56,770 bases of DNA, taken from assembly GCA_045656585.1 (NCBI GenBank), contig JAZORM010000094.1:1-56770 (forward strand), given 5' to 3'. How positions within the stretch are numbered: the stretch's first letter is position 1; every line of letters starts with the position of its first letter. The notes under the pieces are model-generated. The model was not told the origin of the DNA, did not search any database, and saw nothing but the letters and a program-made list of their open reading frames with translations. Below are positions 23,405-31,918 of the stretch, in pieces. A program made the position numbers and the translations under genes. Source of the stretch: Acutalibacteraceae bacterium. GTDB taxonomy: Bacteria; Bacillota; Clostridia; Oscillospirales; Acutalibacteraceae.

Positions 23405-23522
23405 TTTTGGTAATTCCTTTCAAAAAATATCTATTATTATACAATAACCAGCGCTTCTTTTCAACCTTTCTTATAAATTTGGAAAAAATTTTAATTTTTT
23501 TGAACTTTTCGTCAAAAATTGT

Positions 23523-23551
23523 TTGTAATATTATTATATATATGTTATAAT
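23523..23551 (+). promoter_or_regulatory. Sigma-A-type promoter of the hydrogenase operon
   Basis: TTGTAA (23523-23528), a 17-nt spacer, then an extended -10 TGtTATAAT (23543-23551). About 64-nt leader to hydC. Confidence 0.45.
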
Positions 23552-23621
23552 TACATAGTATGCAGGAAATTGTCGTTTTTCGACTGACTTGCAAACGATT
23601 ATCATAAGGAGGATTTTGTTT

Positions 23622-24125
23622 ATGCTCAAAAAAATCAGTAATTTGCCCTTTAAGGGAACAGCCGAACAAGAAGCAAAACTTGACGCTATAATCGCTCAAA
23701 GCAAAGATGACAAAAGTCTTTTGATGTCTGTTATGCAACAAGCACAAGATATCTACGGCTACCTTCCGATTGAAGTGCAAACAAAAATCGCAGAAGGTAT
23801 GGACGTTCCGCTTGAAAAAGTATATGGTGTTGCTACTTTCTACGCTCAGTTCTCTTTGTCTCCAAAGGGCGAGTACAACGTTTCAGTATGTTTAGGTACT
23901 GCTTGTTACGTTAAAGGCTCTGGTGACATTTTTGACAAGTTTAGCGAACTTCTCGGAATCGGAGCTGATGAATGTACCGCCGACGGTAAATTCTCGCTCA
24001 CAGCTTGTCGTTGCATAGGCGCTTGTGGCTTGGCTCCCGTACTTACTGTTAATGAAGAAGTTTACGGTCGTCTTACAGCTGATGATGTTCCAGGCATTTT
24101 GGAAAAATACGGTTTTTCAAAATAA
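23622..24125 (+). CDS. hydC: NuoE-type [2Fe-2S] subunit of the electron-bifurcating hydrogenase
   Basis: CLGTACYVKG ... CRCIGACGLAP Cys pattern. AGGAGG SD. The start was moved to the ATG at 23622. Confidence 0.8.
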   Translation: MLKKISNLPFKGTAEQEAKLDAIIAQSKDDKSLLMSVMQQAQDIYGYLPIEVQTKIAEGMDVPLEKVYGVATFYAQFSLSPKGEYNVSVCLGTACYVKGSGDIFDKFSELLGIGADECTADGKFSLTACRCIGACGLAPVLTVNEEVYGRLTADDVPGILEKYGFSK

Positions 24126-24144
24126 TCTATAAGGATAAAATTTT

Positions 24145-24501
24145 ATGAAAATCAGTACGATTAAAGATTTACTCGAAGCAGAAGTTCTTTGTTACCCTGA
24201 GGGTCTGGATTTACACGTATATTCTGCTTGTGGCAGTGATATGATGAGTGACGTTTTGGCTTACGTTAAAGACCAAGCGGTTTTGATGACAGGCCTTGTA
24301 AACTCACAGGTTATAAGAACTGCTGAAATGATGGATATGAACTGCGTAGTTTTTGTCCGCTCAAAAATGCCTACTGCCGAAATGATTGAATTGGCACAAG
24401 AAAGCGGAATTATTTTGCTGACAACATCAAAAAGAATGTATGAGGCCTGTGGTATTTTGTACAGCAACGGTCTCGTAGGAAACAGAGCGAAGAATGTCTG
24501 A
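24145..24501 (+). CDS. DRTGG-domain protein
   Basis: 118 aa with GSDMMSDVL ... AVLMTGLVNSQVIRTAEMMDMNCVVFV, the DRTGG-domain pattern. Confidence 0.6.
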   Translation: MKISTIKDLLEAEVLCYPEGLDLHVYSACGSDMMSDVLAYVKDQAVLMTGLVNSQVIRTAEMMDMNCVVFVRSKMPTAEMIELAQESGIILLTTSKRMYEACGILYSNGLVGNRAKNV

Positions 24502-24919
24502 AGCTTTAAATTTTCATTTTGAAGTTGATGGCAATGATTTCAAATCGGCAGGTCATGCCTCGTTCTTGATGAAAAAGAATTTGAGACAGCTAGGGCTTCC
24601 ACCCGAAACAATAAGACGCGTTTCGATTGCAATGTATGAGGGTGAAATCAATATGGTAATACACGCGCGTGGCGGCACAGCCGACGTTAACGTATATGAA
24701 GATTGTATTGAGATTATCTTGGCTGATAAGGGTCCCGGTATTAAAAATATCGAACAGGCTATGCAGGAAGGATTCTCAACTGCTACCGATAACATCCGTT
24801 CTTTAGGATTTGGAGCAGGTATGGGACTTCCAAATATGAAACGCTATACCGACTATATGGATATCGCTTCCGAGGTTGGTGTCGGAACTACTATTACAAT
24901 GAAAGTAAATCTTATTTAG
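24494..24919 (+). CDS. GHKL-type ATPase, anti-sigma-factor/RsbW-like serine kinase fold
   Basis: N-box EGEINMVIHA, G1 box DKGPGI, G2 box GFGAGMGLPN. It overlaps the upstream gene by 8 nt. Confidence 0.65.
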   Translation: MSEALNFHFEVDGNDFKSAGHASFLMKKNLRQLGLPPETIRRVSIAMYEGEINMVIHARGGTADVNVYEDCIEIILADKGPGIKNIEQAMQEGFSTATDNIRSLGFGAGMGLPNMKRYTDYMDIASEVGVGTTITMKVNLI

Positions 24920-24938
24920 TTTACGGCAGGTGATTTAT

Positions 24939-26201
24939 ATGAATACATATGAACATTCTGTGGTTTTAGATGTCGAAAAATGTAACGGCTGCACAACCTG
25001 TCTTAAGCATTGTCCCACTGAGGCAATTCGTATTAAAGAGGGTCACGCTGTTATTAATGACGGCAGATGTATTGACTGTGGCGAATGTATTAGAGTTTGC
25101 CCTAACAATGCAAAAAAAGCAAAAACAGGCAGTTTTTCTGCGATGGATAAGTTTAAATGGAAAATCGCTTTACCTGCTCCAACACTTTATGGTCAATTCG
25201 ACAATTTGGATGACGTTGATTACGTATTAGACGGGCTTTTAAAGATTGGTTTTGACGATGTTTTTGAGGTATCAGCTGCGGCGGAACTTGTCTCAGCTTA
25301 TACTCGAAAGTATTTAAAAACCGACGGAATAGTAAAACCCGCTATCAGTTCAGCTTGTCCGGTTGTTACAAGGCTTATCGCTCTTCGTTTTCCGTCGCTT
25401 TTGGACCACGTGATACATATGCTTCCTCCTATGGAGGTTGCGGCTCATTTGGCAAAAGAGAAGGCAAAGAAAGAGCACCCCGAGTTATCCGAATCCGATA
25501 TAGGTGTTTGCTTTATATCTCCTTGTCCTGCAAAAGTCAGTTACGTTAAAAATGGTTTTGCGGGTTATGAAAGCAAGGTTGATTGCGTAATACCGATAAG
25601 TGACGTTTATTTTAAACTCATAAGCGTTATGAAATACGGAAGTGACGTTAAATCGCTCACAAATTCGGGTATTATTGGTATTAGTTGGGCTTCTTCAGGC
25701 GGAGAAGCAACTGCAATATTTAATGAAAATTATCTTGCGGCTGATGGTATCGATAATGTTATGCGTGTTTTGGATCAGGTTGAAAATGGCAATATACCGC
25801 CACTTGAGTTTATCGAGCTCAACGCTTGTACAGGCGGTTGTGTTGGTGGTGTTCTTACCATTCAAAATCCATTTATCGCTAAGGCAAGACTTCGTTCACT
25901 TCGTAGATATTTGCCGGTATCGGAAAATTTTGCGGTACAAACGGATGAATATCTTCCAAGCGAGTTTTTGTTCGATGATATGCCTACCTATCAACCAATT
26001 TCGAGACTTTCGTCAAGTATGGCAGAGTCTATGCGAATGATGGCTGATATTCAAAGGCTTAAATCTGAACTTCCCGGTCTTGACTGCGGTTCTTGCGGAG
26101 CTCCTAATTGCAGAGCTTTTGCCGAAGACATTGTAAAAGGACAATCATCTATTGATAAATGCCTTATAAAAAAACACAATGACGGCGGTGTTAAAGAATG
26201 A
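24939..26201 (+). CDS. Putative sensory [FeFe] hydrogenase paralogue (M2e / group-D-like HydS)
   Basis: Two CxxCxxCxxxCP ferredoxin motifs. H-cluster motif variants SSACP, ISPCPAK and ELNACTGGCVGG. C-terminal CGSCGAPNCx16C (Cx2Cx4Cx16C). ATG at 24939 behind AGGTG. Confidence 0.7.
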   Translation: MNTYEHSVVLDVEKCNGCTTCLKHCPTEAIRIKEGHAVINDGRCIDCGECIRVCPNNAKKAKTGSFSAMDKFKWKIALPAPTLYGQFDNLDDVDYVLDGLLKIGFDDVFEVSAAAELVSAYTRKYLKTDGIVKPAISSACPVVTRLIALRFPSLLDHVIHMLPPMEVAAHLAKEKAKKEHPELSESDIGVCFISPCPAKVSYVKNGFAGYESKVDCVIPISDVYFKLISVMKYGSDVKSLTNSGIIGISWASSGGEATAIFNENYLAADGIDNVMRVLDQVENGNIPPLEFIELNACTGGCVGGVLTIQNPFIAKARLRSLRRYLPVSENFAVQTDEYLPSEFLFDDMPTYQPISRLSSSMAESMRMMADIQRLKSELPGLDCGSCGAPNCRAFAEDIVKGQSSIDKCLIKKHNDGGVKE

Positions 26202-26524
26202 AAGTAAAAGAGTTGGCGAGTGATTACGGCTTTAAGGCAATAACTCTTCCTGACGGCGAGAGGGAAATAGACGGTGTTTACATCGGCGACCTTTTAAGTT
26301 GGGTTATGGGTAGAGCCAAGGCTGATAATGCTTGGATTACTATAATGTCTAACGTTAATATTTTGGCGGTTGCTTCTTTGGCTGATACTTCGTGTATCAT
26401 TTTGGCTGAGGGGGTTGCGCTTGAGGAAGACGTTTTACAAACTGCTATTGATAAGGAAATAAATATCCTTGGAACTGATATGGATATCTATTCCGCGGCG
26501 GTAAAACTTAGTTCGATAATATGA
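26198..26524 (+). CDS. DRTGG-domain protein (second copy)
   Basis: 108 aa with IGDLLSWVMGRA...AWITIMSNVNILAVASLADTSCIILAEG. ATGA overlap with the upstream gene. Confidence 0.6.
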   Translation: MKVKELASDYGFKAITLPDGEREIDGVYIGDLLSWVMGRAKADNAWITIMSNVNILAVASLADTSCIILAEGVALEEDVLQTAIDKEINILGTDMDIYSAAVKLSSII

Positions 26525-27234
26525 AAAAATATTATTACGATTTACATATTCATTCTTGTCTTTCTCCTTGCGGAGATGACGACTCAACACCTAACAGTAT
26601 CGCGGGTATGGGAGAACTAAACGGTCTTCATATTATGGCGCTTACCGACCATAATACTGTGAAAAATTGTCCCCACTTTTTTGAAGCTGCTTCCAATCAT
26701 GGAATTTTACCGATTGCGGGGATGGAGCTTACTACGTCAGAAGATATCCACATAATTTGTCTTTTCGAAACTTTGGAAAATGCCGCGGCATTTGACAGTG
26801 AAATCGAAAAACGACGGATTTTGATTGAAAACAGAACAGATATTTTCGGTAACCAATTTGTTTGTGACAGCGAGGATAACGTTATCGCAACGGATAAATA
26901 TTTGCTGTCGAATGCGACGGCGGTTTCCTTTGACGAAGTACCCAAACTTGTGGAAAATTTTGGCGGGGTTTGCTATCCTGCTCATATCGACCGTGATTCA
27001 AACTCGGTAACGGCGGTTTTAGGTGGCTTGTCACCGAATCATCCTTTTAAATTTTGTGAACTTCACAATAAAGAAAGAGCGAATGATTTTAAAAACACAG
27101 GTTGCGAGTTTATTGTAAGTAGTGATGCCCATTATTTATGGGATATTAGTGAGAAGGAAAATTTTTTCACGTTACCCGATGATGATAAAAACGCGGTTAA
27201 AAACCTTTTTAAATTTTTGAGGAAAGAATTATGA
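26521..27234 (+). CDS. PHP-domain phosphoesterase
   Basis: DLHIHS, LTDHNT, YPAHIDR and SSDAHY motifs. ATGA overlaps at both ends. Confidence 0.7.
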   Translation: MKKYYYDLHIHSCLSPCGDDDSTPNSIAGMGELNGLHIMALTDHNTVKNCPHFFEAASNHGILPIAGMELTTSEDIHIICLFETLENAAAFDSEIEKRRILIENRTDIFGNQFVCDSEDNVIATDKYLLSNATAVSFDEVPKLVENFGGVCYPAHIDRDSNSVTAVLGGLSPNHPFKFCELHNKERANDFKNTGCEFIVSSDAHYLWDISEKENFFTLPDDDKNAVKNLFKFLRKEL

Positions 27235-27788
27235 AAGAACTTTCACTTAATATTCTCGATATAACCGAAAATTCGGTTAAAGCGGGAGCAACCCTCACAC
27301 AAATTGAAATTTTGGAGAGCGGTGACAAAATGGTTCTTACCATTACTGATAACGGTAGCGGTATGACCGAAGAAATTTTAAAAGGTGTTATTGATCCCTT
27401 TTATACCACCCGCACAACGCGAAAGGTTGGTATGGGACTACCGCTTTTAAAACTTGCCACCGAACAAACGGGTGGCAGTTTGGAAATTTCTTCAAAACAC
27501 TTTGAAAAATTCCCAAACGAACACGGTACGAAAGTCGTGGCTACGTTTTATAAAAATCATATCGACTGCGCTCCTTTGGGAGACGTTGTTGAAACGATTA
27601 AAACCTTGATTCAGGGTCACCCCGATACCGACTTTTTGTTTTCTCACAAAACAGAAAGCGGGGAAGTGGGACTGGATACTAGGGAGTTAAGACAAATGCT
27701 CGAAGACGTACCGCTAAATACTTATGAAGTAATTAAATGGATTGAAGAATATTTGCAAGAGCAATATTCAGAACTCCAAAAAGCATAG
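27231..27788 (+). CDS. GHKL-type (HATPase_c) ATP-binding protein without a visible phosphoacceptor domain
   Basis: ENSVKAG (N-box-like), DNGSGM (G1) and VGMGLPLL (G2). Confidence 0.65.
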   Translation: MKELSLNILDITENSVKAGATLTQIEILESGDKMVLTITDNGSGMTEEILKGVIDPFYTTRTTRKVGMGLPLLKLATEQTGGSLEISSKHFEKFPNEHGTKVVATFYKNHIDCAPLGDVVETIKTLIQGHPDTDFLFSHKTESGEVGLDTRELRQMLEDVPLNTYEVIKWIEEYLQEQYSELQKA

Positions 27789-27804
27789 AAAGGAAGATTC
27801 AAAA

Positions 27805-28167
27805 ATGAAATCTTTGGCTGAATTACAAGCAATTAAAGACAAAATGAAGAATAAGGTTATTCTTCGTGAAGGTACTAACGACATGCGTGTTGTTGTTGGT
27901 ATGGCGACTTGCGGTATTGCAGCAGGCGCTCGTCCTGTTCTAAACGCATTGGTAGAAGAAGTAAATGCTCTAGACCTTATGGACACAGTTACTGTTTCAC
28001 AAACCGGTTGTATCGGTATTTGTGAATACGAACCTGTAGTAGAAGTTTTCGAAGCAGGTAAGGAAAAGGTAACCTACGTTAAGATTGACGCCGAAAAGGC
28101 AAAGAGAATCGCAAAAGAGCATTTAAAAGGCGGCAATGTTGTTGCTGAATATACAATTAAAGCATAA
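27805..28167 (+). CDS. Thioredoxin-like [2Fe-2S] ferredoxin-domain protein (small hydrogenase accessory subunit)
   Basis: MATCGIAAGA ... QTGCIGICEYEP pattern. The start was moved to the ATG at 27805 behind GAAAGGAAG. Confidence 0.7.
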   Translation: MKSLAELQAIKDKMKNKVILREGTNDMRVVVGMATCGIAAGARPVLNALVEEVNALDLMDTVTVSQTGCIGICEYEPVVEVFEAGKEKVTYVKIDAEKAKRIAKEHLKGGNVVAEYTIKA

Positions 28168-28193
28168 GCGAATAAAATATTGGAGGTAAAAAT

Positions 28194-30014
28194 ATGGTTC
28201 GTGCACATGTGTTAATCTGCGGCGGTACAGGTTGTACTTCTTCGGGCAGTGCTTCTATCCAAAAAGCTTTCGAAGAAAATCTTGTAGCATTTGATCTTGC
28301 AGAAGAAGTTAAACTTGTTCAAACCGGTTGTTTCGGTCTTTGCGAATTAGGTCCCGTTGTTATCGTATATCCTGACGGTACTTTCTACAGCCGTGTAACC
28401 CCCGAAGACGTTAAAGAAATCGTTGAGGAACATCTTTTGAAAGGTCGTCCTGTTGAACGTTTGGTTTACACCGATACAGGTAAGGACGCTCCTAAGGTTG
28501 AAGGTCAAGTAGCGCTTAGCGATACTGCTTTCTACAAATCACAAAACCGTGTAGTTCTTCGTAACTGTGGTGTTATTGACCCTGAAAACATCGAAGAATA
28601 TATCGCTATGGACGGTTACGCTGCTTTGGGTAAGGTTCTTACCGAAATGAAACCCGAAGACGTAATCAAGGTTATTTCTGACTCTGGTCTTCGTGGACGT
28701 GGAGGCGGCGGCTTCCCAACAGGCTTTAAATGGTCTTTGTGCGCTCCTAACAAGGCTGACCAAAAATACGTTGTATGTAACGCCGACGAAGGCGACCCCG
28801 GTGCATTTATGGACCGTTCCGTTTTGGAAGGTGACCCGCACTGTTTAGTAGAAGCTATGGCTATCGCCGGTTATGCTATCGGCGCTACTGAAGGTTACGT
28901 TTACGTTCGTGCTGAATATCCTATCGCTGTTAAACGTTTACAAAAGGCTATCGACCAAGCTCGTGAATACGGTCTTTTGGGTAAAGATATCTTTGGTTCA
29001 GGTTTCGATTTCGACCTCTTCATCCGTTTGGGTGCAGGTGCGTTCGTTTGCGGTGAAGAAACCGCTCTTATGACCTCTATCGAAGGTAACCGTGGTGAGC
29101 CAAGACCTCGTCCTCCTTATCCGGCAGTTAAGGGTCTTTTCGGCAAACCTACCGTTGAAAATAACGTTGAAACATTTGCTAACGTTCCTCAAATCATTTT
29201 GCGTGGTGCTGAATGGTTTGCATCAATGGGTACCGAAAAGTCAAAGGGTACTAAGGTATTCGCACTTGGCGGTAAGATTAAGAATACAGGTCTTGTTGAA
29301 ATCCCAATGGGTACCACACTTCGTCACATTATCGACGAAATCGGTGGCGGTATTCCTAACGGCAAGAAATTTAAGGCTGCTCAAACAGGTGGTCCTTCAG
29401 GTGGTTGTATCCCTGCTCACCTTATCGATACAGAAGTTGACTATGACAATTTGACTGCTATCGGTTGTATGATGGGTTCAGGCGGTCTTATTGTAATGGA
29501 TGAAGACAACTGTATGGTTGATATGGCTAAATTCTTCCTTGAATTTACCGTTGACGAATCTTGCGGTAAGTGTACTCCTTGCCGTGTAGGTACAAAGAGA
29601 CTTCTTGAAATCCTTGACAAGATTACATCGGGTAAGGGTACTCTTGAAGACGTTGACAAACTCGAAGAACTTTGCTACTACATTAAGCAAAACTCACTTT
29701 GCGGTCTTGGTCAAACAGCTCCTAACCCTGTTCTTTCAACTCTTAACTTCTTCCGTGATGAATATATTTCTCACGTTGTTGATAAGAAGTGTCCTGCAGG
29801 TGTATGTAAAGACCTTCTCACATTTGTTGTTGATAAGGACAAGTGTATCGGTTGTGGCGTATGTGCAAGAAATTGCCCTGTTAACGCTATTGTTAAGACT
29901 GATTACGTAGCGCCCGGTCACAAACTTCCATCTTACACAATCGACACTGAAAAGTGCGTCAAGTGTGGCGTTTGTATGGGTAACTGTAAGTTTAAAGCTA
30001 TTAGTAAGCAATAA
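28194..30014 (+). CDS. hydB: NuoF-type NADH-binding flavoprotein subunit of the bifurcating hydrogenase
   Basis: GRGGGGFPTGFKW (FMN/NADH site) and ESCGKCTPCR (4Fe-4S). N-terminal Trx-like 2Fe-2S domain. Two C-terminal ferredoxin Cys motifs. Confidence 0.9.
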   Translation: MVRAHVLICGGTGCTSSGSASIQKAFEENLVAFDLAEEVKLVQTGCFGLCELGPVVIVYPDGTFYSRVTPEDVKEIVEEHLLKGRPVERLVYTDTGKDAPKVEGQVALSDTAFYKSQNRVVLRNCGVIDPENIEEYIAMDGYAALGKVLTEMKPEDVIKVISDSGLRGRGGGGFPTGFKWSLCAPNKADQKYVVCNADEGDPGAFMDRSVLEGDPHCLVEAMAIAGYAIGATEGYVYVRAEYPIAVKRLQKAIDQAREYGLLGKDIFGSGFDFDLFIRLGAGAFVCGEETALMTSIEGNRGEPRPRPPYPAVKGLFGKPTVENNVETFANVPQIILRGAEWFASMGTEKSKGTKVFALGGKIKNTGLVEIPMGTTLRHIIDEIGGGIPNGKKFKAAQTGGPSGGCIPAHLIDTEVDYDNLTAIGCMMGSGGLIVMDEDNCMVDMAKFFLEFTVDESCGKCTPCRVGTKRLLEILDKITSGKGTLEDVDKLEELCYYIKQNSLCGLGQTAPNPVLSTLNFFRDEYISHVVDKKCPAGVCKDLLTFVVDKDKCIGCGVCARNCPVNAIVKTDYVAPGHKLPSYTIDTEKCVKCGVCMGNCKFKAISKQ

Positions 30015-30031
30015 GAAAGGAGCCTTATAAA

Positions 30032-31783
30032 ATGGATATGATTAATGTTAAAATTAACGGTATTGCTGTAAGTGTACCAAAGGGCTCTACTGTTTTAGAT
30101 GCTGCCCGTAGAGCAGGTATTGAAATCCCAACCCTTTGTTTTATGAAGGAAAAGAACGAAATCGGCGCTTGTCGTATTTGCGTTGTTGAAGTAAACGAAG
30201 GCAGAGGTTTCCGTGTTGTTACTGCTTGTGTATACCCTGTAACTGAAGGTATGGAAGTTCTTACCAATACCGAAAAAATTCAAAAAGCAAGAAAAACAAC
30301 TCTTGAACTCATTCTTTCTACCCACGAGAAAAAGTGTCTTTCTTGCGCTCGTTCAACAAACTGCGAACTCCAAAAGCTTTGCCTTGACTATGGCGTAGAT
30401 GAAAATGCTTTTGGCGGTTTCAAGCCTGAATATGAACTTGACTGCAGCACTCCTCATCTCGTAAGAGATAACAACAAGTGTATTCTTTGCCGTCGTTGTG
30501 TTGCTGCTTGTAATGAACAATACGTTGGCGTTATCGGCGCTAATAACCGTGGTATTGATACAAATATCGGTACTCCGTTTGAAGTTGGTCTTTCAAACGT
30601 TCCTTGTATCTCTTGCGGTCAATGTACTGTTGTATGTCCTACAGGTGCATTGGTTGAAAAAGACGATACCGATAAGATTTGGGAAGCTTTGGCTGACAGC
30701 AGTAAGCACGTTGTAGTTCAAACTGCTCCTTCGGTTCGCGCTACTTTGGGTGAATGCTTTGGTATGCCTATTGGTTCAAATGTTGAAGGCAAGATGGTTG
30801 CTGCTCTTCGTCGTCTCGGCTTTGATAAGGTATTTGATACCGACTTTGCGGCTGACCTTACAATCGTTGAAGAAGCAAACGAACTTGTACAAAGAATTAA
30901 CAATGGCGGCACATTGCCAATGATTACTTCTTGCTCACCAGGTTGGGTTAAGTTCTGCGAATACTACTATCCTGACATGATCGACCATCTTTCAACTTGT
31001 AAGTCACCTCAACAAATGGCAGGTGCTGTATTTAAGACCTACTATGCTCAAAAGATGGGTATTGATCCTAAGGATATCGTTTCAGTTTCAGTTATGCCTT
31101 GTACTGCTAAGAAGTTTGAAATCGGACGTCCGGACCAATCTGCTGCAGGTGTTCCTGATGTTGATATCGCTATCACAACTCGTGAACTCGCTCGTATGAT
31201 TGACCGTGCAGGTATTCAATTTACTTGGTTGCCTGATGAAGAATTTGATTCACCTTTGGGCGAAGATACCGGCGCTGCAGTTATCTTTGGTGCTACCGGT
31301 GGTGTTATGGAAGCTGCTCTTCGTACCGCTAACGACTGGCTCACAGGTAAAGATAATACTGAAATCGAATTTGAGGCTGTTCGTGGCACACAAGGTCTTA
31401 AGGAAGCTGCTGTTACCATCAACGGTATGGAAATCAAGGTTGCTGTAGCATCAGGTGCTTCTGCTGCTAAGTGTGTAATGGATATGATGAAGGCTGGTAA
31501 CCCGAAGGGTTGGACCTTTGTTGAGATTATGGGATGTCCAGGCGGTTGTGTAAACGGCGGCGGTCAACCTATCCACCCACAAAGTGTTCGTGATATCGTA
31601 GATCTTAAGGCTGTTCGTGCTAAAGCTCTCTACGACCAAGACGCTGCAATGCCAATTCGTAAGTCACACGAATCTCCCGTAGTTAAGAAACTCTACGAAG
31701 AATGGTATGACGGTTTTGGTGGCCATAAGGCTCACCACGATTTGCATACAAGCTATGTAGCTCGTGAAAAATACACAAAATAA
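30032..31783 (+). CDS. hydA: [FeFe] hydrogenase catalytic subunit (trimeric/bifurcating type)
   Basis: N-terminal 2Fe-2S and F-cluster Cys motifs. H-cluster motifs TSCSPGW, MPCTAKKFE and EIMGCPGGCVNGGGQP. Confidence 0.9.
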   Translation: MDMINVKINGIAVSVPKGSTVLDAARRAGIEIPTLCFMKEKNEIGACRICVVEVNEGRGFRVVTACVYPVTEGMEVLTNTEKIQKARKTTLELILSTHEKKCLSCARSTNCELQKLCLDYGVDENAFGGFKPEYELDCSTPHLVRDNNKCILCRRCVAACNEQYVGVIGANNRGIDTNIGTPFEVGLSNVPCISCGQCTVVCPTGALVEKDDTDKIWEALADSSKHVVVQTAPSVRATLGECFGMPIGSNVEGKMVAALRRLGFDKVFDTDFAADLTIVEEANELVQRINNGGTLPMITSCSPGWVKFCEYYYPDMIDHLSTCKSPQQMAGAVFKTYYAQKMGIDPKDIVSVSVMPCTAKKFEIGRPDQSAAGVPDVDIAITTRELARMIDRAGIQFTWLPDEEFDSPLGEDTGAAVIFGATGGVMEAALRTANDWLTGKDNTEIEFEAVRGTQGLKEAAVTINGMEIKVAVASGASAAKCVMDMMKAGNPKGWTFVEIMGCPGGCVNGGGQPIHPQSVRDIVDLKAVRAKALYDQDAAMPIRKSHESPVVKKLYEEWYDGFGGHKAHHDLHTSYVAREKYTK

Positions 31784-31835: not shown

Positions 31836-31918
31836 ATGTAGAATTAAGGGTTTCGCGTTGCGAAAGAATATACAAGACAAATATATGTATGTGGACGACA
31901 AACGTCGTCCGTAAAGTT

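Follow-up and report, generated by a model that had tools for sequence, protein, structure and literature searches.

Introduction

Hydrogenases of the M2e type (Group D) were described in 2012 as being encoded with kinases and phosphatases upstream of bifurcating hydrogenases (PMC3561251; PMC3492117), and again in 2020 (PMC8163306). Carere et al. listed M2e genes that lie upstream of hyd, at a distance of five positions, for Caldanaerobacter, Caldicellulosiruptor, C. thermocellum, C. phytofermentans and Thermoanaerobacter (PMC3561251), the association with bifurcating hydrogenases was also described by Rydzak et al. in 2012 (PMC3492117), and Land et al. reported in 2020 that a histidine-kinase-like ATPase flanks TamHydS of T. 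mathranii (PMC8163306). M2e enzymes have been characterized as slow hydrogenases with sensor-like behaviour (PMC8163306). In the fermenters of guts, rumens and digesters, as in biofuel strains, the H2/redox balance is set by bifurcating [FeFe] hydrogenases, and the manner in which H2 is sensed and these enzymes are adjusted is an acknowledged gap. Here, we analyse such a locus in an Acutalibacteraceae bacterium, using a 56,770-nucleotide stretch of contig JAZORM010000094.1 (assembly GCA_045656585.1), which in its full length is termed the window. In this locus, six genes lie between hydC and the remaining genes of a bifurcating hydrogenase; they encode two DRTGG proteins (DRTGG-1 and DRTGG-2), two GHKL ATPases (GHKL-1 and GHKL-2), a hydrogenase paralogue (HydS) and a PHP-family phosphoesterase. 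The block almost certainly corresponds to the Group D (M2e) HydS module (DRTGG-1, GHKL-1, HydS, DRTGG-2 and PHP), joined to GHKL-2 (the "HydE" of A. woodii) and HydD of an A3 HydABC operon of the NADH/ferredoxin-bifurcating kind. The cassette itself is, therefore, not new, being a known Group D module with a clade-specific gene order. An earlier note on this DNA held that the signalling partners and the target of such sensors had not been established; indeed, a paper of April 2026 states that the partners of the Group D sensor are still to be identified (PMC13104023).

TamHydS (PMC8163306; PMC13104023) has the same layout as the HydS of the window, i.e., two N-terminal [4Fe-4S] clusters, an H-domain, a C-terminal four-Cys cluster and no PAS domain. 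Both have another residue in place of the proton-relay Cys and are encoded with a group A bifurcating hydrogenase and beside a histidine-kinase-like ATPase. The two loci differ in that hydC precedes the module in the window, and none of the ten distant lineages examined here showed the "AraC-family regulator" that is reported beside TamHydS. Members of Group C (M2f), namely T. maritima HydS, R. albus HydS and T. saccharolyticum HfsB (hfsABCD), are likewise H-cluster sensors with a C-terminal [4Fe-4S] motif; they, too, are encoded beside bifurcating hydrogenases with kinases and phosphatases, and are proposed H2 sensors. In Group C, however, a PAS domain follows the C-terminal cluster and the outputs are recognizable, being a Ser/Thr kinase (PMC5707799), a HisKA-HATPase with a sigma-54 regulator (in a Syntrophomonadaceae locus, L084) or a fusion to a sigma-54 activator (in a Thermoanaerobacteraceae locus, L089). 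In the module studied here, a DRTGG domain, either separate or fused, occupies that place, and a canonical output is absent.

The hydrogenase part of the locus resembles the hydC-hydE-hydD-hydB-hydA1 operon of A. woodii (PMC3315566), in which HydE, a protein with a histidine-kinase ATP-binding domain that is not part of the purified enzyme, matches GHKL-2, and HydD matches the small Trx-like protein of the window. The A. woodii core order of hydC, GHKL, hydD, hydB and hydA is also that of one relative of the window (L061) and of most of the distant lineages. However, the A. woodii operon is described as comprising five genes and no adjacent sensor module, while in the window the sensor genes stand between hydC and GHKL-2. 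The HoxBC-HoxJ-HoxA system of Cupriavidus necator also employs a hydrogenase paralogue as H2 sensor coupled to a GHKL kinase, yet it is built on a [NiFe] site and unrelated proteins, and HoxJ is a canonical PAS-DHp-CA kinase that acts on the response regulator HoxA, giving a complete two-component output. Finally, GHKL-1 shares the SpoIIAB/RsbW fold and the catalytic E-x3-N, G1 and G2 motifs with the kinases of the partner-switching modules SpoIIAB-SpoIIAA, RsbW-RsbV and RsbT-RsbS and, as in these modules, a small single-domain GHKL protein stands beside a small alpha/beta partner and a phosphoesterase. In contrast to these modules, the window has no STAS antagonist, PP2C or sigma factor, and the neighbours of the kinase are DRTGG proteins, for which fusion to the kinase or the sensor is frequent.

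Results and Discussion

HydS is a putative H2 sensor of Group D

The window proteins were searched against Pfam and NCBIfam, the Pfam output-domain families being judged at E<=0.01. Pfam analysis of HydS revealed two Fer4 domains (residues 11-68), Fe_hyd_lg_C (PF02906, 101.7 bits) and a C-terminal FeS motif (PF04060, 52.5 bits, residues 381-412), with no match to a PAS domain. The cluster cysteines are invariant among 45 diverse homologues, including C383, C386, C391 and C408 of the C-terminal four-Cys motif. By reading of the protein, the L1 motif is SSACP, in which the proton-relay Cys (C299 of CpI) is replaced. The positions of Met353 and Met497 (criteria from PMC8163306) fall in SPCPAK and ELNACTGGC, respectively; both Met residues are replaced, and the M497 position, reported as Leu in TamHydS, is Asn (ELNAC). 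HydS is thus a putative H2 sensor with a predicted H-cluster. It belongs to a large family, with at least 8000 matches at E<=1e-20 and 416 clusters (50% identity) at E<=1e-30, and is about 30-60% identical to the other Group D representatives with which it was compared.

The earlier note could read no DHp, receiver, STAS, sigma-factor or HTH domain in the six cassette proteins, and none of these domains (nor HisKA) was found in them by Pfam at the above threshold.

Natural fusions link four proteins of the module

Natural fusions link all four of DRTGG-1, GHKL-1, HydS and DRTGG-2, which is strong Rosetta-stone evidence that these proteins are likely to act as one sensor-kinase assembly. Among the 150 best HydS cluster representatives, ten are of odd length: seven of these carry DRTGG-2 at the C-terminus, two carry DRTGG-1 at the N-terminus and one carries GHKL-1 at the N-terminus. 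The HydS·DRTGG-2 fusions comprise P0138, P0156, P0208, P0241, P0255, P0152 and P0266 (the latter two by reading), P0326 and P0386, with a further one in frame in L084. DRTGG-2 follows directly upon the C-terminal cluster motif of HydS, which is the position of PAS in the Group C sensors of L084 and L089. The GHKL-1·HydS fusion is a real lineage of about 40 clusters (587-634 aa), several of which occur on many contigs of up to 433 kb; a HATPase_c domain on sensory hydrogenases has also been seen in Hydrogenedentota (PMC11406978). DRTGG-1 and GHKL-1 form a single protein of 256-279 aa in all 120 of the 120 best matches of the Caldanaerovirga fusion, down to 43% identity, and DRTGG-1·HydS fusions exist as well (e.g., in the short contig L093). 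The order of domains in the fusions is always that of the genes.

The ten-gene order is conserved and the module tracks HydB and HydC

A scan of one genome per species yielded at least 591 encoding loci, of which the closest 80 were analysed. These derive from gut or rumen metagenome-assembled genomes (MAGs) of Acutalibacteraceae, Oscillospiraceae or "Eubacteriales", with HydS identities of 58-87%. The order of all ten genes from hydC through hydA is identical in 36 of the 80, while a further 43 are cut by contig ends yet consistent with it, and a single locus, L061, has hydC elsewhere. The synteny with hydABC on which the earlier note's interpretation leaned thus holds in 79 of 80 species-level relatives, in which HydS is kept in one predicted transcription unit with the group A bifurcating hydrogenase genes hydC, hydB and hydA. 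All six cassette genes are held by 68 of the 80 loci.

In contrast to the ten genes, the flanks vary: the commonest family obtained by clustering of the flanking open reading frames (ORFs) occurs in eight of 63 related loci, and none of the families is a regulator. Since the order is conserved while the flanks vary, the ten genes are a selected unit, and their association is far beyond chance. A conserved flanking regulator was accordingly rejected as a candidate, no flanking family being found in more than eight of the 63 loci. One stretch, L078:57-1802, which is counted among the 43 loci cut by contig ends, is the only one of the 80 in which HydS does not precede DRTGG-2 and PHP; a small membrane-anchored protein and unrelated genes on the opposite strand are found instead, and the stretch may represent an orphan second copy or else a join made in assembly.

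The contexts of ten distant lineages were annotated with Pfam and checked with profiles built from the window orthologues (Table 1). The order in L061, which serves as the reference in the table, is DRTGG-1, GHKL-1, HydS, DRTGG-2, PHP, hydC, GHKL-2, Trx, hydB, hydA.

Table 1. Organization of the module in ten distant lineages
Locus	Lineage	Organization relative to L061
L081/82	Bacillota MAGs	GHKL-1·HydS fused; no DRTGG-1; no PHP
L083	Desulfofarcimen acetoxidans	No PHP
L084	Syntrophomonadaceae	HydS·DRTGG-2 fused
L085	Chloroflexota	No difference
L086	Caldanaerovirga	rex upstream; DRTGG-1·GHKL-1 fused
L087	Moorellales	No DRTGG-1
L088	Bacillota MAG	As L081/82; HydA replaced by a molybdopterin formate-dehydrogenase-like subunit
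L089	Thermoanaerobacteraceae	rex upstream; DRTGG-1·GHKL-1 fused
L090-92	Aminicenantales-like	DRTGG-1·GHKL-1 fused; order PHP, GHKL-2, hydC; partners are polyferredoxin, FlpD, [NiFe] small subunit and HdrCBA-like genes
L093	Short contig	Order DRTGG-2, PHP, GHKL-2, DRTGG-1·HydS fusion, Trx

The earlier note had described the cassette as spliced into the hydrogenase operon. This is true of the window clade; in L061 and the distant lineages, however, hydC comes after PHP or GHKL-2. It lies directly before GHKL-2 in eight of the ten distant lineages, and directly behind the sensor genes in nine of the eleven cases when L061 is included. The hydC-first order of the window clade is therefore a derived local rearrangement and not an insertion event of the whole family.

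HydS, DRTGG-2, GHKL-2, the Trx-like protein and HydB/HydC are present together in all ten distant lineages wherever the contig extends, and GHKL-1 is found in all but the short L093. In L088 and L090-92, HydA is replaced while HydB/HydC, GHKL-2 and the Trx-like protein stay; the module hence tracks the NuoEF-like HydB/HydC pair with GHKL-2 and the Trx-like protein, and not HydA itself. In L088 (14810-17542), the partner of the sensor module is a molybdopterin formate-dehydrogenase-like subunit of 910 aa, and in L091 (14483-16831), as in L090 and L092, the partners are a polyferredoxin without H-domain, FlpD and a [NiFe] small subunit, with HdrCBA-like genes upstream. In these lineages an [FeFe]-type H2 sensor may regulate bifurcating complexes that are not of the [FeFe] type. 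No HTH, receiver or sigma domain was found in the gene set conserved between the window and the distant loci.

Some genomes have two types of H2 sensor at one hyd locus. Beside the Group D module, L084 (3356-7039) encodes a Group C HydS-PAS-HisKA-HATPase followed by a sigma-54 response regulator, and L089 (16603-16810) a Group C HydS-PAS-sigma-54-activator fusion of 875 aa.

GHKL-2, HydD and the hydrogenase subunits

GHKL-2 is composed of a histidine-kinase-type CA domain (about residues 1-105) and a C-terminal region of about 80-85 residues. A profile search against the PDB matched KinB (2e-12) and ZraS over residues 8-103 only, and within the N, G1, F and G2 boxes the residues N14, D40xGxG44, P56-F57 and G67xG69 do not vary among 61 orthologues. 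The protein also matches HATPase_c_3 (MutL/Hsp90-like) in Pfam. No HisKA or Response_reg match that would point to a phospho-acceptor domain (DHp/HisKA) or a cognate receiver was obtained with Pfam. A DHp or other known domain hidden in the C-terminal region was considered and rejected, as this region has no Pfam match at E<=1 in five divergent orthologues and no sequence match in the PDB. A single-sequence AlphaFold model (pLDDT 46, too poor to use) suggests an alpha-beta-beta-alpha-alpha layout and no helical hairpin.

Just past the last strand of the CA domain, residues 110-118 of GHKL-2 (window positions 27558-27584) read H-I-D-x-x-P-L-G-D, and the H110-x4-P-L spacing resembles that of a HisKA H-box. 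Among the 61 orthologues D112, P115, G117 and D118 are invariant and H110 is more than 90% conserved. This segment is probably a loop and helix of an alpha/beta domain and not a DHp hairpin.

GHKL-2 is present in all ten distant lineages and adjoins hydC in nine, hydC being absent from the short contig of L093. In every lineage with a long enough contig except L093, the Trx-like gene follows GHKL-2, either directly or with hydC between them, and the ends of the two genes often overlap or nearly so. GHKL-2 and the Trx-like protein correspond to "HydE" and HydD of A. woodii.

The hydrogenase is predicted to be of the A3 bifurcating type: HydA has a complete H-domain and N-terminal clusters (NF040763, NADH-dependent [FeFe] hydrogenase, 874 bits and thus above the cut-off of 765; Fe_hyd_lg_C, 326.8 bits), HydB is NuoF-like (nuoF_fam, 509.7 bits) and HydC is NuoE-like. 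The first H-cluster motif of HydA (window positions 30920-30940) is TSCSPGW throughout the 51 bifurcating HydA proteins collected from the window and 50 related or distant loci, with TSCSPAW in one locus; in the clostridial CpI enzyme it is presumably TSCCPGW.

DRTGG-1, DRTGG-2 and GHKL-1

The assignments to DRTGG, GHKL, PHP and H-cluster families made in the earlier note are upheld by the Pfam and NCBIfam searches, although DRTGG-1 lies just under the Pfam DRTGG (PF07085) cut-off of 25.2 bits, which DRTGG-2 exceeds; DRTGG orthologues and fusions pass it with scores of up to 36 bits. Both DRTGG proteins have an invariant D-L-(L/M)-S motif where the second helix begins. The T-G and R-x-K-x-P motifs at the ends of the next two strands are kept by DRTGG-1 only, DRTGG-2 being devoid of the Arg/Lys pair. 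The invariant residues of DRTGG-1 (D-x-M-S, T-G and R-x-K-x-P) form a constellation typical of a phosphoryl or ligand site, making this protein a candidate for a phospho-acceptor or a metabolite pocket.

GHKL-1 scores 38.3 bits with HATPase_c_2 (cut-off 27.4), its best NCBIfam match is SpoIIAB (TIGR01925 spIIAB, 8e-16), and it matches SpoIIAB in the PDB at 3e-6. The SpoIIAB catalytic motifs E-x3-N, DxGxG and GxGxG are invariant in 107 fusion sequences. An AlphaFold model of an orthologous DRTGG-1·GHKL-1 fusion (P0390; pLDDT 89.4, pTM 0.74) was compared with known folds by Foldseek: the GHKL half matches SpoIIAB 1til of the SpoIIAB/RsbW type (E 4e-11, TM 0.85), and the DRTGG half matches AF1212 (2ioj, TM 0.79) and 3l31. 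GHKL-1 is, therefore, a putative Ser/Thr kinase of the SpoIIAB/RsbW/RsbT type with intact catalytic residues. Neither the window operon nor the distant loci annotated with Pfam yielded a STAS antagonist or a sigma-factor partner for it.

According to the earlier note, the pair of DRTGG protein and ATPase occurs twice. The two pairs are not a duplication: profiles built from the window orthologues place DRTGG-1 and DRTGG-2, the latter found in every distant locus examined, in distinct orthologous groups, and the ATPases are of different GHKL subfamilies (SpoIIAB/RsbW for GHKL-1, histidine-kinase CA for GHKL-2). A tandem duplication of DRTGG and GHKL pairs was rejected on the same grounds.

The PHP enzyme resembles nucleotide esterases

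The PHP protein shares the fold motifs and full metal-ligand set of the family with CpsB/YwqE, TrpH/YciV (RNase AM) and Cv1693. PF02811 matches all 38 of 38 orthologues, in which the ligands H9, H11, D43, H44, E69, H155, D202 and H204 are invariant. The nearest PDB relatives of its profile are the pAp phosphatase Cv1693, RNase AM, EndoQ and 3e0f; at E<=1 the profile retrieved solely nucleotide, nucleic-acid and polymerase PHP domains, among them 3e0f, 7ug9, 2yb1 and EndoQ, and the NCBIfam matches are to nucleoside-bisphosphate phosphatase and RNase RNM. The enzyme thus groups with the nucleotide/nucleic-acid branch and not with the CpsB/YwqE tyrosine phosphatases. It resembles nucleotide esterases, and a role as protein phosphatase is an assumption that should not be presumed.

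A possible protein-level control of the HydBC module

The earlier note had suggested a kinase/phosphatase or partner-switching circuit. As a proposal this is still the best available reading, but its phosphatase part is weakened by the nucleotide-esterase kinship of PHP and by the absence of this enzyme from three lineages. We tentatively propose an H2-dependent control at the protein level, in which a split sensor-kinase acts on the HydBC module and the receiving end is encoded on the same transcript. DRTGG-1, GHKL-1, HydS and DRTGG-2 would assemble as one split sensor-kinase, in which the H-cluster domain of HydS reports H2 and DRTGG-2, at the position of PAS in Group C, relays the change. 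GHKL-1 would then bind or phosphorylate a partner, the candidate acceptor being the invariant Ser, or the Asp, of D-L-(L/M)-S in both DRTGG proteins, and the PHP esterase, where present, would reset the state. The signal would end on GHKL-2 and the Trx-like HydD and, through them, on the HydB/HydC flavin module, so that H2 might modulate the bifurcating enzyme, in its activity or its assembly, at the protein level and not via a DNA-binding output. The support for this comes from the domain identities, the conserved order, the fusions, the intact ATP- and metal-binding residues, and the lack of a canonical output in the conserved gene set. The fusions imply a DRTGG-1/GHKL-1/HydS/DRTGG-2 complex, and, from the co-occurrence, the likely recipients of the signal are GHKL-2 ("HydE"), HydD and the flavin module HydBC. 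A more specific version, in which a non-canonical H2-responsive phospho-switch has an RsbW-type kinase hard-wired to a hydrogenase-like sensor, with DRTGG replacing STAS, HisKA and receiver, and with the bifurcating enzyme in place of a transcription factor as the target, is rather doubtful; if true, electron bifurcation would be regulated after translation by its product, H2, by way of the HydE-like ATPase and the small subunit HydD.

Several observations weigh against protein-level control by such a split sensor-kinase. A substrate that is permanently fused to its own kinase fits classic partner switching poorly, and GHKL-2 is a histidine-kinase CA domain without a His-acceptor domain. For HfsB, a Group C sensor, genetic work argues for an effect on adhE at the transcript level (PMC5707799), and in two lineages (L086 and L089) rex stands upstream of the module and is translationally coupled to it. 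DRTGG-1 is missing in three lineages (L087, L081/82 and L088), as is PHP in L081/82, L083 and L088, and the profile search of the PDB with PHP gave no match to the CpsB/YwqE protein phosphatases at E<=1.

The output could instead be transcriptional, an unlinked regulator (Rex, a sigma factor or another repressor) being sequestered or phosphorylated by HydS/GHKL-1, in the manner of SpoIIAB and RsbW with their sigma factors, such that H2 controls the hyd and fermentation genes. GHKL-1 belongs to the anti-sigma-factor kinase family, the rex gene overlaps the start of the DRTGG-1·GHKL-1 gene in L086 and L089, deletion of hfsB raises adhE transcripts in T. saccharolyticum (PMC5707799), and Group C sensors fused to HisKA-HATPase or a sigma-54 activator adjoin the module in L084 and L089, which shows that H2 sensors can act on transcription. 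We nevertheless regard this as somewhat unlikely: rex is absent from the window and the 80 related loci, the promoter region lacks a Rex-box-like site, neither the 63 related loci nor the ten distant lineages conserve a DNA-binding gene close to the module, and the constant company of GHKL-2 and the Trx-like protein would be left unexplained. By analogy with the sigma-B pathway of B. subtilis, the operon might also be a two-tier partner-switching cascade, an explicit form of the circuit suggested in the earlier note, in which DRTGG-1, GHKL-1 and HydS play the roles of RsbS, RsbT and RsbR, PHP that of RsbU, and DRTGG-2 and GHKL-2 those of RsbV and RsbW, with HydD in the place of the sigma factor. 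The gene order does parallel rsbS-T / U-V-W / sigB, which we take to be the order of the sigB operon; DRTGG-2, PHP and GHKL-2 are contiguous in three lineages (the window clade, L090-92 and L093), and GHKL-2 and the Trx-like gene often overlap. Such a cascade is improbable, however, given that Pfam finds no STAS, PP2C or sigma factor, that GHKL-2 is of the histidine-kinase CA and not the RsbW type, that DRTGG-2 is fused to HydS and not to GHKL-2, that PHP is missing in three lineages, and that A. woodii is reported to have hydE and hydD in a five-gene operon without sensor genes (PMC3315566).

Two further explanations were considered. HydS and the two ATPases might have no part in signalling and serve a HydBC-type complex as accessory, assembly or repair factors or as extra subunits, GHKL-2 being a chaperone- or clamp-type ATPase and HydS an auxiliary hydrogenase subunit of low activity. 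This would suit the HATPase_c_3 match of GHKL-2 and the module's habit of following HydBC whatever the catalytic partner; moreover, the authors of the A. woodii study left "assembly or signalling" open for HydE (PMC3315566), TamHydS is catalytically active, though slow (PMC8163306), and a survey of 2024 treats some sensory-type hydrogenases as the "T" subunit of Bfu complexes (PMC11406978). Yet GHKL-1 is specifically of the anti-sigma kinase family, HydS is devoid of the proton-transfer residues of catalytic enzymes, and A. woodii HydABC was purified in active form without these proteins (PMC3315566), which makes a non-signalling role quite improbable. Alternatively, DRTGG might bind a nucleotide or phosphorylated metabolite that PHP hydrolyses, combining the H2 signal with an energy or redox metabolite signal. 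The kinship of PHP with nucleotide esterases, in both the PDB and NCBIfam comparisons, speaks for this, as do the invariant Asp/Ser, Thr and Arg-x-Lys of DRTGG-1 at C-terminal strand ends, the usual ligand site of such folds. DRTGG domains are also found within regulatory regions in CBS-pyrophosphatases (PDB 3l31 and 3l2b), where they have a role in nucleotide regulation. With no nucleotide cyclase or synthase in the operon, no Arg/Lys pair in DRTGG-2 and a PHP that is dispensable in three lineages, nucleotide signalling is very improbable.

A full-text literature search for DRTGG with hydrogenase gave nothing relevant, though very recent work may be missed by it, and the DRTGG component seems not to have been discussed. 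The fusion network, the tracking of HydBC, GHKL-2 and HydD by the module regardless of catalytic partner, and the caution regarding PHP likewise appear to be absent from the literature found. The same genes are present in tractable organisms such as C. thermocellum, Caldicellulosiruptor and Thermoanaerobacter, where the candidates are directly testable.

Organization of the locus and its flanks

The earlier note had described six cassette ORFs with their coordinates, an 8-nt overlap, ATGA overlaps, short gaps and a number of motifs, all of which agree with the ORF list of the window. This list has ten same-strand (+) ORFs from hydC through hydA, at 23622-31783 (Table 2). The 8-nt overlap (24494-24501) joins DRTGG-1 and GHKL-1, ATGA overlaps at 26198, 26521 and 27231 join HydS to DRTGG-2, DRTGG-2 to PHP and PHP to GHKL-2, and the remaining gaps in the cassette are of 10-19 nt. 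The mechanical call for HydS starts with GTG at 24930, inside the AGGTGA ribosome-binding site (24928-24933); because of this site, and of the 420-aa product of database entry P0001, the start is most likely the ATG at 24939.

Table 2. Features of the hyd locus in the window
Feature	Position	Strand	Description
Promoter-like site (tentative)	23523-23551	+	TTGTAA-17-TATAAT with TG, upstream of hydC; consensus scan
hydC	23622-24125	+	NuoE-like 2Fe-2S subunit of bifurcating hydrogenase; PF01257 168.7 bits; ribosome-binding site AAGGAGG before ATG
DRTGG-1	24145-24501	+	118 aa; regulatory/dimerization-type alpha/beta domain; Pfam DRTGG 23.8 bits
GHKL-1	24494-24919	+	141 aa; SpoIIAB/RsbW/RsbT-type GHKL ATPase, putative Ser/Thr kinase
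HydS	24939-26201	+	420 aa; Group D (M2e) putative H2-sensing [FeFe] hydrogenase paralogue
DRTGG-2	26198-26524	+	108 aa; Pfam DRTGG 25.9 bits; translationally coupled to HydS
PHP	26521-27234	+	237 aa; PHP-family metal-dependent phosphoesterase; PF02811 40.4 bits
GHKL-2	27231-27788	+	185 aa; histidine-kinase-type CA domain and uncharacterized C-terminal domain; HATPase_c 52.9 bits
Small Trx-like protein (HydD-type)	27805-28167	+	120 aa; PF01257 weak, 22.2 bits
hydB	28194-30014	+	NuoF-like FMN/NAD(H) subunit; Complex1_51K 152 bits, NADH_4Fe-4S 119 bits
hydA	30032-31783	+	Catalytic [FeFe] hydrogenase, group A, NADH-dependent/bifurcating type; NF040763 874 bits
Terminator-like hairpin (tentative)	31890-31913	+	10-bp stem, 5 GC pairs, T-rich tail; after hydA

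A consensus scan found the promoter-like site to be the sole strong candidate on the + strand of the intergenic region 23405-23621, and the hairpin after hydA is tentatively taken as the end of the ten-gene unit. A riboswitch or other known RNA in the leader was rejected, as no Rfam family reached threshold anywhere in the window. Control of the operon by Rex was likewise rejected: there is no Rex-box-like site near the promoter, the nine matches in the whole window fall short of the 13.7 expected by chance, and no rex homologue was found in the window or in the 80 related loci. In L086 (6536-7168; Caldanaerovirga acetigignens) and L089 (7372-8004; a Thermoanaerobacteraceae MAG), a gene for a Rex-type repressor overlaps the start of the DRTGG-1·GHKL-1 gene.

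As the earlier note had observed for the window, no regulator flanks the operon, and the 63 related loci have no conserved flanking regulator either. The flanking genes, which are metabolic, encode a type III glutamine synthetase, a peptide-binding (solute-binding) lipoprotein and a DUF378 protein; the downstream genes are dapB/dapA/asd, by reading of the sequence only.

In three unrelated lineages, a gene for an ECF-transporter S-component (PF12822, 165-172 aa) lies directly upstream of the module (L081:8517-9017, L085:4803-5321 and L088:7523-8020), and in two of them it overlaps the first gene of the module; its substrate might, as a guess, be a precursor of flavin for HydB. Among L081-L088, five distant lineages (e.g., L082:12673-15696) have a HydB of about 1005-1011 aa, compared to 606 aa in the window, with a C-terminal GltD-like Pyr_redox_2/Fer4_20 extension, which points to another nucleotide specificity or to an additional flavin of those complexes.

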